A stretch of DNA of 64,000 nt from an uncultured beta proteobacterium (GTDB lineage: Bacteria; Pseudomonadota; Gammaproteobacteria; Burkholderiales; Casimicrobiaceae), in contig CAWESK010000024.1 of NCBI GenBank assembly GCA_963811685.1, forward strand, positions 145,460 to 209,459. The letters are read 5' to 3'. Each line of letters opens with the position of its first letter. Positions within the stretch are counted from its first letter, which is position 1. This document shows positions 22,635 to 25,166 of this stretch, piece after piece. A program made the position numbers and the translations under genes. The notes under the pieces were generated by a model. That model did not search any database, was not told the origin of the DNA, and saw only the letters and a list, made by a program, of their open reading frames with translations.

Positions 22635-23138
22635 TCAGCGGTAGAAATAGCCGGCGACGCGCCAGACGTCGCCCGCTTCGATTGTCCAGATGACCTGCTC
22701 GCTCAAGTGCTTGCCTTTGGGATACTTGGCCTCGAACTCGATGATCGCGTAGTCGCCGGCGGGTGCGCCGGGCAGCTCGTGCGCGCGCGCGAACTTGATC
22801 GCGGTGCGCGATTCGAGCTTGCCGAGCGGCTTCCGCGCGGCGCGCACGTCGGCGATGAAAGCCTCGCGCTTCACGACTGACTGAAGCTGCTTCGACGCCG
22901 AATCCCACGCGACGCCCGGTTTGTCGGCGTCCAGAAGCTCCAGCCATTTCTTTCCCGCCTCGATGGCCTCCTTGTCGTCGCCGAGCGTGGGCTGCGTCGG
23001 AGGCGGCTCGGTGGGAGGCGGCTGCGTCGCCGGCGGTGCGGTTGACGGGGCGGGGGTTGCCGGCGCCTGCGCGAAGGCCGCTCCCGCAAGCGAGAGCAGC
23101 GCGAGGATTCCGATCGACAAGGCGACGCGGCGCATCAT
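22635..23138 (-). CDS. Secreted DUF4019-like protein encoded inside the nuo operon
   Basis: ATGATG at 23138 overlaps the nuoD TGA (ATGA). Signal peptide [23 protein letters not shown], then a Pro/Thr-rich linker. The following domain matches the DUF4019 pattern as I recall it (W..L.D....W........V....F......R..LG....R.......LPGAP.G.Y.I..F...........E.V......G.W.V.GY). It ends 14 nt before the nuoE ATG. Confidence 0.8.
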
Positions 23139-24388
23139 CGGTCGATGCTTCCGAACACGATGTCCTGCGTGCCGATGATCGCGACGATATCGGCGATCAT
23201 GTGGCCGCGCGACATCTCGTCCAGCGCCGCCAGGTGCACGTAATCGGGCGGCCGCAGCTTGACGCGATACGGCTTGTTGGCGCCGTCGGAAATGATGTAG
23301 ACGCCGAACTCGCCTTTCGGATGCTCGATCGCCGCATAGGCTTCGCCGGGCGGCACGTGCATGCCCTCGCTGAAGAGCTTGAAGTGGTGGATCAGCTCTT
23401 CCATGTTGGTCTTCATCGCCTCCCGGGAGGGCGGCGCGACCTTGTGGTTGCCGGTGATCACCGGACCCGGATTGGCGCGCAGCCAATCGACGCACTGGCG
23501 GACGATGCGGTTCGATTGCCGCATCTCCGCGACCCGCACGAGATACCGGTCGTAGCAGTCGCCGTTGGTGCCGACCGGAATGTCGAAATCCATCCGGTCA
23601 TAGACCGCGTAAGGCTGCTTCTTGCGCAGGTCCCACGGCACGCCCGAGCCGCGCAGCATCGCGCCCGTGAACCCCAGCGCGATCGCGCGCTCGCCCGTCA
23701 CGACGCCGATGCCCACCGTCCGCTGCTTCCAGATCCGGTTTTCCGTCAGCAGCGTCTCGTAGTCGTCGACGTAGCCGGGGAAGCGGTTGGTGAAATCCTC
23801 GATGAAATCGAGCAGCGAGCCTTGCCGGTTCGCGTTCATCGCCGTCATTGCGCGCGCGCTGCGCGAGGACTGCGCTGCGTACTGCGGCATGCGGTCGGGC
23901 AGGTCGCGATAGACGCCGCCAGGGCGGTAATACGCGGCGTGCATCCGCGCGCCCGACACCGCCTCGTACATGTCGAGCAGATCCTCGCGCTCGCGGAAGC
24001 AATAGAGAAACGTGGTCATCCCGCCGATGTCGAGCGAGTGGGCGCCGAGCCACAGAAGGTGATTCAGGATCCGCGTGATCTCGTCGAACATCACGCGGAT
24101 GTACAGCGCGCGCTCGGGCACGTCGACGCCGAGCAGCCGCTCGATCGCAAGGCAATAGGCATGCTCGTTGCACATCATCGACACGTAGTCGAGCCGGTCC
24201 ATGTACGGCAGCGACTGCAGGTAGGTCTTGTTCTCGGCCAGCTTCTCCGTGGCACGGTGGAGCAGCCCGATGTGCGGGTCCGCGCGCGCGATGACTTCGC
24301 CGTCGAGCTCGAGCACGAGCCGCAGCACGCCGTGCGCCGCCGGATGTTGAGGTCCGAAATTCATGGTGTAGTTACGGATTTCAGCCAT
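23135..24388 (-). CDS. nuoD: NADH-quinone oxidoreductase subunit D
   Basis: 417 aa, [31 protein letters not shown]...; a full-length 49-kDa-subunit homologue. Confidence 0.95.
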
Positions 24389-24405
24389 GGATTTCGGACC
24401 TCAAC
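24346..24405 (-). promoter_or_regulatory. RNA hairpin enclosing the nuoD ribosome-binding site and start codon
   Basis: Perfect 15-nt inverted repeat: GTTGAGGTCCGAAAT (24405->24391) and ATTTCGGACCTCAAC (24360->24346). It is extended by CAUGG (24389->24385) pairing with CCAUG (24366->24362). The loop is 18 nt. Confidence 0.65.
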
Positions 24406-24535
24406 GAGCCTTTCTCAGGGCCCACAACACGCCGCAAGCGCACGCGCAGCGGCTTGTTGCGGCGGACACTAACATCGGCGAAGGCGATGTTATGTGGACG
24501 GCAAAATTCATGGTGTAGTTGCGAATTTCCGCCAT
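24401..24535 (-). other. 44-codon leader mini-ORF between nuoC and nuoD that duplicates the NuoD N-terminus
   Basis: ATG at 24535 encodes [44 protein letters not shown], with the stop TGA at 24403-24401. It is too short for the ORF track; I translated it by hand. See findings. Confidence 0.5.
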
Positions 24536-24566
24536 GGACTGGTTCCGAGATCTCGGTCGCGATGCC

Positions 24567-25166
24567 CTACTTGCTGCTCGCGTACTGATCTTCGCGGATG
24601 ACCCGCGGCGTGATCTCGCGGGGCTCGATCGACACGGGCTGGTAGATCACGCGGCCCTGTTCGGGGTCGTAGCGCACCTCGACGTGACCCGACAGCGGGA
24701 AATCCTTGCGGAACGGATGCCCGATGAAGCCGTAGTCGGTCAAGAGGCGCCGCAGGTCGGGATGCCCATTGAAGATGATCCCGTAGAGGTCGAACGCCTC
24801 GCGCTCGAACCAGTTCGCCACCGGCCAGATATCGATCGCGGTCGCGATCACGGGAAACGCATCGTCGGGAACGAACGCGCGCACGCGCACGCGCCAGTTG
24901 TTCGCGAGCGAGAGCAGGTGGTAGACGACGGCGAACCGGGGGCCCTCGCGCGCGCCGTCGCCGTAGGTCGAGTAATCGACGCCGCAAAGATCGACCAGCA
25001 TCTCGAAACGAAGCTCGGGACGGTCGCGCAGGAGCCGCAGCGCGCCATCGATCCCGGCGGCCACGACAACGGCGGTGACCTCGCCGTTGGCTACGGTCAC
25101 GCCCGCGAGCTTGTCGCCGAGCACTGCCGGCAGCGTCGCGGCAAGGGTTTCGATGCGGGTGGCCAT
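24567..25166 (-). CDS. nuoC: NADH-quinone oxidoreductase subunit C
   Basis: 199 aa from [13 protein letters not shown]. The ATG shares one base with the nuoB TGA. The upstream part of the 337-aa track ORF overlaps nuoB. Confidence 0.93.

Follow-up and report, generated by a model that had tools for sequence, protein, structure and literature searches.

Why are nuoC and nuoD, two normally contiguous and translationally coupled complex I genes of an essential operon, set 178 nucleotides (nt) apart in an uncultured beta proteobacterium, with a second copy of the nuoD start lying between them? This question arises at the nuoC–nuoD junction of a 64,000-nt stretch of Casimicrobiaceae DNA (positions 145,460 to 209,459 of contig CAWESK010000024.1, assembly GCA_963811685.1; hereafter, the window). 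We identified the insert as one copy of a Y-shaped palindromic repeat dispersed in Betaproteobacteria, which we name E; the duplicated start opens a short reading frame that runs through the repeat and stops close to the real nuoD start. Comparison across relatives makes it likely that this is a tolerated selfish insertion whose leftover start has been kept as a translational relay, handing ribosomes to nuoD by termination–reinitiation.

The nuoD start is duplicated downstream of nuoC

The first 33 nt of nuoD (24388..24356, minus strand) are found again at 24535..24503, with a start-to-start distance of 147 nt and four differences between the copies, all of them third-position and synonymous. 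A degenerate pattern matched the window twice, and two matches were seen in none of 100 shuffled sequences. The upstream copy (copy 1) opens a mini open reading frame (ORF) that ends at UGA 24403-24401, 12 nt before the nuoD AUG. The preliminary description of this locus, made from the letters alone, had reported both the repeat and the mini-ORF, and both held up here. NuoD itself is intact and carries no extension (417 aa, 80–93% identical to its relatives).

Tandem direct repeats can be assembled wrongly, and the window comes from a metagenome assembly, so the duplication could in principle be an assembly artefact, a concern already voiced in the preliminary description. We regard this as exceedingly improbable. 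A metagenome contig from ENA, retrieved by exact NuoD look-up (L001; L and P numbers are our own handles for loci), encodes an identical NuoD and is only 98.4–99.0% identical to the window, and thus represents a separate assembly of the same species. Its nuoC–nuoD spacer likewise measures 178 nt and shares the structure, with six substitutions inside the spacer, showing that the duplication is no artefact and the feature is real. Homologous structures in dozens of unrelated assemblies likewise argue against mis-assembly. The parts of the junction are as follows.

24567..25166 (-), nuoC (Complex1_30kDa), with its TAG stop at 24569-24567, from the ORF list, gene calls on L001 and the NuoC C-terminal motif
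24536..24566 (-), spacer from the nuoC stop to the mini-ORF AUG, 31 nt, without a Shine–Dalgarno (SD) sequence
24556..24545 (-), perfect 12-nt palindrome CCGAGATCTCGG inside the 31-nt spacer
24401..24535 (-), mini-ORF (relay upstream ORF, uORF), 44 codons plus UGA 24403-24401, ending 12 nt 5′ of the nuoD AUG
24503..24535 (-), copy 1 of the nuoD 5′ end (putative ancestral nuoD start), four synonymous differences from copy 2
24456..24507 (-), E unit 1, with P1 strands TTTTGCC and GCCGCAA and P3 TAACATCG/CGATGTTA (24492-24485 / 24477-24470); P2 missing
24425..24459 (-), accessory hairpin H, CAACAAGCCGC ... GCGGCGTGTTG, found after E in non-nuo copies too
24385..24429 (-), remnant of a second E unit, TGTTGTGGGCC ... 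GGTCCGAAA, terminating in the anti-nuoD arm GTTGAGGTCCGAAATCCATGG
24405..24385 (-), anti-nuoD arm GTTGAGGTCCGAAATCCATGG, holding the uORF UGA 24403-24401, GAGG 24402-24399 and the nuoD AUG 24388-24386
24346..24366 (-), target arm in nuoD, codons 8–15, CCATGAATTTCGGACCTCAAC, pairing with the anti-nuoD arm
23135..24388 (-), nuoD (Complex1_49kDa, 417 aa); copy 2 of the start is 24388..24356

The 241-nt junction has a predicted fold of -100.2 kcal/mol (z = -4.7). No promoter-like or terminator-like site was found in 23900-25100, and an exact look-up of the 44-aa mini-ORF peptide returned no called gene on record. The palindrome CCGAGATCTCGG is limited to the window and L001. Downstream, between nuoD and nuoE, lies a DUF4019 (PF13211) gene of 167 aa (22635..23138, minus strand) with a 4-nt overlap with the nuoD stop, according to the gene calls on L001.

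To place the junction among its relatives, we used a NuoD-based scan with one genome per species and compared the 80 nearest loci. The step from nuoC stop to nuoD start mostly ranges from an 8-nt overlap to a 24-nt gap, and 16 loci have spacers of more than 40 nt. Nine of the 80 species genomes, all among these 16, hold the window-like arrangement (L004, L008, L010, L013, L018, L048 and L054) or remnants of it (L002 and L009), each laid out as nuoC stop, copy of the nuoD 5′ end, hairpin-rich insert and real nuoD. About 21 metagenome contigs have the arrangement at nuoC–nuoD, and the insert with the duplicated nuoD start was found at 26 nuoC–nuoD junctions in total. Conservation among relatives, to which the preliminary description had looked for support, was seen for part of the arrangement: as detailed below, the frame and the stop position are kept at these junctions, and the hairpin covaries in five sequences. 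In the relatives, copy 1 occupies the position that the nuoD start has in element-free genomes, -8 to +11 nt from the nuoC stop, and it appears to be the old nuoD start, left upstream. The insert can also shrink or be lost, as indicated by L003, with a spacer of 6 nt, and L005, in which only an arm-like remainder of 24 nt is left.

Some junctions hold more than one unit. The spacer of L149 measures 271 nt, and two to three tandem or nested units are also present at P0001, P0004, P0036, P0067 and P0068; such multi-unit junctions stay a single open ORF of 60–85 codons, in L149 ending 7 nt before nuoD. Separately, unrelated inserts occupy the nuoC–nuoD junction of other Betaproteobacteria (L069, with a 107-nt spacer, L024, L025, L079 and L007), one such unrelated insert being a near-perfect long palindrome with arms ATTCCAGC...GCTGGAAT in a Methylophilaceae metagenome-assembled genome (MAG). 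Inserts seem to have landed at this junction repeatedly.

The insert is a copy of a dispersed repeat

Scanning metagenome contigs for the conserved hairpin core of the insert (CTTAACTTGC-N3-12-GCAAGTTAGCC) recovered at least 120 loci with at least 131 matches; among the 131 matches listed, about 110 lie outside nuoC–nuoD and about 21 inside. The non-nuo sites are intergenic, tRNA-adjacent (tRNA-Phe), at other gene junctions (ftsW–murG) or in tandem arrays with periods of 73–105 nt. As most matches lie outside nuo, the insert is a copy of a dispersed repeat. The E consensus reads TTTTGGCTNCGGCCG-[variable hairpin]-CTTAACTTGC-loop-GCAAGTTAGCCTNCRCCGAAA, a three-helix unit of 60–75 nt. In an alignment of 57 sequences it folds as a three-way junction of P1, a 3-bp P1b, P2 and P3, with 93.7% of cells paired as opposed to 25–52% with slid partners and with 15 pairs changed on both sides, values that were reached in none of 500 shuffles. 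The outer stem TTTTGGC/GCCGAAA covaries (GGC:GCC, AGT:ACT, GTC:GAC, TTGT:GCAA), and a G·T wobble in P1 is kept in 56 of the 57 sequences.

The insert in the window is a decayed short array of unit 1, hairpin H and the remnant of a second unit. Unit 1 scored 30.8 bits (E = 3.4e-6) against a covariance model whose training alignment includes the window sequence, and its P3, TAACATCG/CGATGTTA, replaces the family consensus TAACTTGC/GCAAGTTA through compensatory changes. The 3′ strand of the second-unit remnant and the flank make the anti-nuoD arm, the counterpart of GCCGAAATTCATGGTG in canonical copies. Hairpin H follows E in L119, L138, L159, L171, L186, L192 and L149 as well.

This identification changes how several features of the mini-ORF are read. 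The preliminary description had taken it for a leader mini-ORF repeating the NuoD N-terminus; a leader dedicated to that end is not supported, as the insert is a dispersed repeat and duplication of the gene's 5′ end accompanies E at other genes too. The atypical ATA and TTA codons, formerly seen as a signal, derive from the AT-rich P3 core of E. The peptide segment CGVLWAL, which had been likened to HGVLRL of NuoD, is encoded by the 3′ arm of hairpin H (GCGGCGTGTTG) and, since H follows E beside tRNA genes, is no echo of NuoD. We also considered the insert as a degenerate inverted copy of nuoD codons 9–47 ('ADTNIG' versus 'ADPHIG') and rejected this, the segment being the P3 hairpin of the E family.

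The covariance model found no further E copy in the 64-kb window and, over 531 kb of genome loci (81 loci with 7-kb flanks), placed E only at nuoC–nuoD. An Rfam search of 24200-24700 returned no family, the best hits being miRNA-like hairpin models at 15–18 bits (E about 1), and on the canonical E copies in L018, L102, L145, L122 and L097 it returned flanking tRNAs only. Full-text literature searches with the E core sequence and on such a nuoC–nuoD insert found no relevant paper. No transposase linked to E turned up, though no search was aimed at transposases.

Two further settings of E were seen. In tandem arrays (L102 4270-4560, L186 2640-2850, L145, L101 and L126) the units recur with a period of 73–137 nt, parted by a locus-specific short hairpin or spacer. 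In L122, L136, L153, L161 and L112, a very small membrane-protein gene (..RFWIITMMLVLFGLSTLKLR*) is present in repeated copies, and E lies within or between them and appears readable in frame.

The mini-ORF stays open and ends close to the nuoD start

At all 26 element-bearing junctions the relay frame is without an internal stop, and in each its stop falls near the nuoD start, at most 12 nt ahead of it or 13 nt past it. The gaps from relay stop to nuoD start are 12, 9, 8, 7, 6, 5, 4, 0, -1, -8 and -13 nt, with abutment of the TAAATG or TGAATG type at four junctions and a ATGGCTGA overlap at five. The frame is open across the non-conserved 20–50 nt 3′ of E, and also where the N-terminal copy has decayed (L114, L054 and L002). 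Twelve junctions are in a phase that would otherwise run 27 nt into nuoD, and all of them stop earlier, either 4–9 nt upstream or with a 1-nt overlap.

The length of E is constrained at this site. From the GGC codon to the GAA codon it measures 51, 57 or 60 nt in all 14 distinct nuo copies, a multiple of three in 14/14 compared with 8/62 elsewhere (Fisher p = 4.7e-10). The P3 loop is 4 or 7 nt in 21/21 nuo copies; elsewhere 3 nt is commonest. In addition, nuoD lacks an SD in 55 of 61 element-free relatives and in 20 of 26 carriers; it seems normally to initiate by direct transfer of ribosomes from the ORF before it. These observations partly support the view that the mini-ORF behaves as a translated frame whose job would be to end at the nuoD start.

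They also bear on the possibility that the insert is a neutral scar, with the repeat and duplicated start inert, nuoD initiating independently, and the open frame and hairpin being by-products of composition and palindrome dynamics. E does look selfish and dispersed, several loci also lack stops in one of the two other frames through the core, template switching can homogenise the arms of a palindrome, and close relatives such as L003 and L005 show loss or reduction of the element. We nevertheless judge an inert scar unlikely. Neither the excess of multiple-of-three lengths at nuo nor the openness of the frame through non-conserved sequence is expected from it; the stop always falls within a few nt of the start, including in all in-frame cases, and nuoD lacks its own SD in most carriers, leaving no apparent route for independent initiation.

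Recoding is another alternative. In the window the 147-nt spacing is in frame, which had led to the suggestion that read-through of the UGA would give NuoD a 49-residue N-terminal extension; equally, the two copies offer matching take-off and landing codons, so ribosomes might hop from copy 1 to copy 2 and take the NuoD N-terminus from the upstream copy, which would account for the amino-acid conservation of copy 1 described below. The junctions speak against either event, and we consider recoding very improbable. The spacing of the starts falls in all three phases; the starts are in frame at only about 11 of the 26 junctions, and as a stop is present in every one of these, a read-through extension is not the conserved feature. 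Copy 2 always retains an ATG, GTG or TTG start and conserved codons, and the relay frame is open far past copy 1, which hopping does not need. The distance of 117–171 nt also far exceeds the 50-nt gap crossed in the hop of phage T4 gene 60.

A predicted hairpin over the nuoD start is confined to the sub-clade of the window

In the window, two 21-nt arms (24405..24385, GUUGAGGUCCGAAAUCCAUGG, and 24366..24346) that are 95% complementary flank an 18-nt loop, and the 81-nt hairpin predicted from them (-34.2 kcal/mol, z = -6.2; none of 200 shuffles as stable) covers the relay UGA, the GAGG and the nuoD AUG, as the preliminary description had proposed. Five distinct sequences (window/L001, L002, L004, L202 and L204) retain the window-type hairpin, with 92% of cells paired and four compensatory pairs, each at a nuoD synonymous site (Asn10, Phe11, Gly12 and Gln15). 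In this sub-clade, the arm and the nuoD AUG meet in the palindromic CCATGG. The anti-arm of the common form, GCCGAAATTCATGGTG, lies directly 3′ of E, 20–50 nt upstream of the nuoD start. The predicted burial of SD and AUG is limited to the sub-clade of the window.

Where the two nuoD copies differ, the anti-arm complements the real nuoD alone 38 times and the upstream copy alone 14 times. Of the 120 peptides listed, 76 combine Met9 (ATG) with His (CAT) and 22 combine Leu9 with Glu or Gln (GAG/CAG); two depart from this pattern. By this comparison, the anti-nuoD arm tracks the real nuoD. The earlier proposal that nuoD is coupled to the mini-ORF by a ribosome that melts the hairpin is the reading best supported by comparison; burial of the SD and AUG belongs to the sub-clade of the window alone.

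The NuoD-like N-terminus of the relay peptide is conserved

A profile built from nine mini-ORF peptides retrieved at least 266 small predicted proteins of 35–82 aa, all annotated as 'hypothetical protein', with the consensus MAEI[RK]NYT[ML]NF[GSA]xGRPAxPxLTCxxRKLAxAE[IMV]H... No Pfam domain was found in any of the 266, and an NCBIfam scan of the mini-ORFs gave no family. At 22 distinct loci, copies 1 and 2 differ at 80 nt, of which 70 are third codon positions; by codon, 67 differences are synonymous and 9 non-synonymous, with all nine non-synonymous changes in copy 1. In L001, copy 1 encodes Leu9 and copy 2 Met9. The 11-residue N-terminus is perfect in 105 of the 120 peptides listed. These 11 upstream residues appear to be under purifying selection, which the relay model leaves unexplained, as it needs an open frame alone, while an unconstrained relic should vary at all codon positions.

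Such conservation would fit a functional micro-protein whose NuoD-like N-terminus acts on complex I assembly or on NuoC, as a decoy or tether for example, with coupling to nuoD being secondary; neutral decay would have scattered the changes across all codon positions. The remainder of the peptide fits poorly with this idea. Past residue 12 it is dictated by the nucleotide sequence of the repeat and then freely variable; 4 of 44 relay residues differ between the window and L001, two 99%-identical strains with identical NuoD. The three loci with a decayed N-terminal copy nonetheless keep the frame open to the nuoD start, and the peptide matches no Pfam or NCBIfam family and has no predicted domain. 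A micro-protein as the principal explanation is, in our estimate, improbable. The conservation of copy 1 could possibly reflect a micro-protein or nascent-chain role alongside the relay, constraints on early elongation, or hopping, the last made less likely by the variable phase and by copy 2 having kept its start intact.

E is accompanied by duplicated flanking sequence at other genes

The duplicated gene start is a property of E, not of nuoD. At five ftsW–murG loci (L098, L131, L179, L180 and L188), E lies reversed just inside murG, and both the ftsW end and the murG start are duplicated. There, the old (duplicated) murG AUG opens a uORF whose 3′ end encodes the duplicated FtsW C-terminus (..NRRVARGLPI*), its stop overlapping the start of the real murG in the native ATGA; the layout follows the same logic as that at nuoC–nuoD. 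At tRNA-Phe(GAA) (L138 1-360, minus strand; also L090, L159 and L171), tRNA nucleotides 1–34 are duplicated upstream; this partial copy carries E+H in its anticodon loop, and about 35 nt further on comes an intact tRNA-Phe. Among non-nuo copies of E, 36 of 66 evaluable have a significant direct repeat of the 5′ flank within 110 nt downstream, some of these being arrays. The flank repeats are about 15–45 nt long, at variable distance, with an inverted copy alongside that often lengthens P1 of E. At nuo, codons 10–12 of nuoD (AAY TTY GGN) coincide with E's own 5′ end (TTTTGGC).

In L162 and L201, a reversed E is located between two membrane-protein genes, possibly of the ABC-type permease kind; the upstream gene has its final codons (..KIIDRV*) in duplicate, and an inverted copy makes a hairpin. 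A single insertion model, in the order target copy, E, inverted copy, target copy, fits nuoD, ftsW–murG and L162/L201 and fails at tRNA-Phe, where E+H lies inside the partial copy; we did not retain it. A longer duplication reaching into the nuoC 3′ end was likewise rejected: at 12 loci, the 60-nt stretch ahead of copy 1 and the 45-nt stretch ahead of copy 2 were no more similar than shuffles, apart from a weak signal in L107.

Taking these sites together, we offer a broader and tentative proposal, which we think somewhat doubtful as a whole. E would be an undescribed small mobile palindromic element whose insertion duplicates 30–45 nt of the 5′ side of its target together with an inverted copy, so that it could colonise essential starts and junctions (nuoD, murG and tRNA-Phe) without inactivating them. 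In protein genes the stranded start would be recruited as a translated relay ORF, and the NuoD-like N-terminus of the relay would itself be functional, as a micro-protein or through a nascent-chain effect, which would explain its amino-acid conservation.

A probable relay of ribosomes to nuoD across a tolerated insertion

The relay reading can be laid out as a series of steps. A short, decayed E array sits within the first dozen nuoD codons, with the 5′ end of the gene duplicated as at other genes hit by E; because of this duplication, an intact nuoD follows the insert and the ancestral start is stranded just after nuoC. That start opens a frame of 35–52 codons, which would be translated through the repeat and which terminates around the real nuoD start. 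Ribosomes would thus terminate at the nuoC stop, re-start at the old AUG, unwind the repeat, terminate again and re-start at nuoD. As nuoD is normally without an SD and apparently reliant on ribosomes arriving from nuoC, selection would keep the relay frame open. In the sub-clade of the window, an inverted copy of nuoD codons 8–15 lies against the AUG, in a predicted 21-bp hairpin hiding the relay stop, the sole GAGG and the AUG, so that initiation at nuoD should depend more strictly on the relay ribosome.

Several points weigh against this account. As the 26 junctions are related by descent, they are less independent than the counts and the Fisher p-value suggest. The carriers are all uncultured (MAGs or metagenome contigs), and the support for the relay is comparative. 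In the window, the relay AUG lacks an SD and is separated from the nuoC stop by 31 nt, an outlier among its relatives, and the first hand-over would be less efficient than in them. The amino-acid conservation of the first 11 relay residues (67 synonymous versus 9 non-synonymous) goes beyond what a relay requires. In L018, which has the common form, the anti-arm is paired to the upstream copy in the predicted fold of lowest energy, and the nuoD start is only moderately structured, indicating that hairpin masking is not general. Finally, covariation of arms in a DNA palindrome can arise by templated (quasi-palindrome) mutation without selection on RNA. On balance we still regard the relay as the probable explanation for the kept frame and stop position.

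If this account is right, the junction is a case of a structured selfish insert tolerated in an essential, stoichiometrically coupled operon, with the old start kept, the repeat translated and ribosomes still reaching the next gene. It would provide a natural and widespread model of relay coupling, given a relay-ORF family of at least 266 protein clusters, every one a 'hypothetical protein'. E itself is an apparently unrecorded family with a well-supported Y-shaped fold and an unusual flank duplication, recurring at the 5′ ends of essential genes. For annotation, ORFs of 35–50 codons and long nuoC–nuoD, ftsW–murG and tRNA-Phe-proximal spacers become explicable.

Comparison with known systems

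Rickettsia palindromic elements (RPEs), ERIC, BOX and QMITE1 are, like E, short, structured, dispersed palindromic repeats. RPEs and other intragenic repeats resembling miniature inverted-repeat transposable elements can lie inside translated sequence and survive through a kept reading frame (PMC10969869). RPEs are fused in frame into the host protein, whereas with E NuoD is untouched, its start duplicated and the repeat placed in a separate upstream ORF. E also differs from RPEs in taxon, in sequence and in its three-way-junction fold.

REP/BIME and Correia (CREE/NEMIS) elements are high-copy palindromic units that lie singly or in arrays between genes of one transcript and can alter mRNA structure and downstream expression. 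REP, which depend on RAYT, are imperfect palindromes of ~35 nt preceded by GTAG and associated with a RAYT gene. The E consensus lacks the 5′-GTAG signature of REP/BIME, and the TA duplication of Correia elements was not seen with E. E has a conserved G·T wobble, a Y-shaped fold and often a 15–35-nt direct repeat plus an inverted copy of its 5′ flank.

Attenuator leader peptides (trpL, ermCL and pheL) share with the relay a short ORF upstream of a structure that occludes a start. No conserved sensing codons were found in the relay, and no terminator/anti-terminator alternative in 23900-25100; unlike in attenuators, the peptide takes its sequence from the repeat beyond residue 12 and is variable there, and the structure is a repeat found at many unrelated loci. 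Coupling by termination–reinitiation or unmasking is known from the trpE–trpD and trpB–trpA overlaps and from coat–replicase of phage MS2. As in these classical cases, the relay stop lies a few nt from the nuoD start or overlaps it, and the nuoD start is without a usable SD or, by prediction, sequestered. Here, by contrast, the partner is a relic start plus a mobile repeat, apparently translated, standing between genes that are normally coupled directly. The arrangement is distinct from these known cases in two respects: the repeat is kept apart from the host protein, in an ORF that opens at the relic start and spans the gap between two genes otherwise contiguous and coupled, and E carries an unusual, long flank duplication at the 5′ ends of essential genes.

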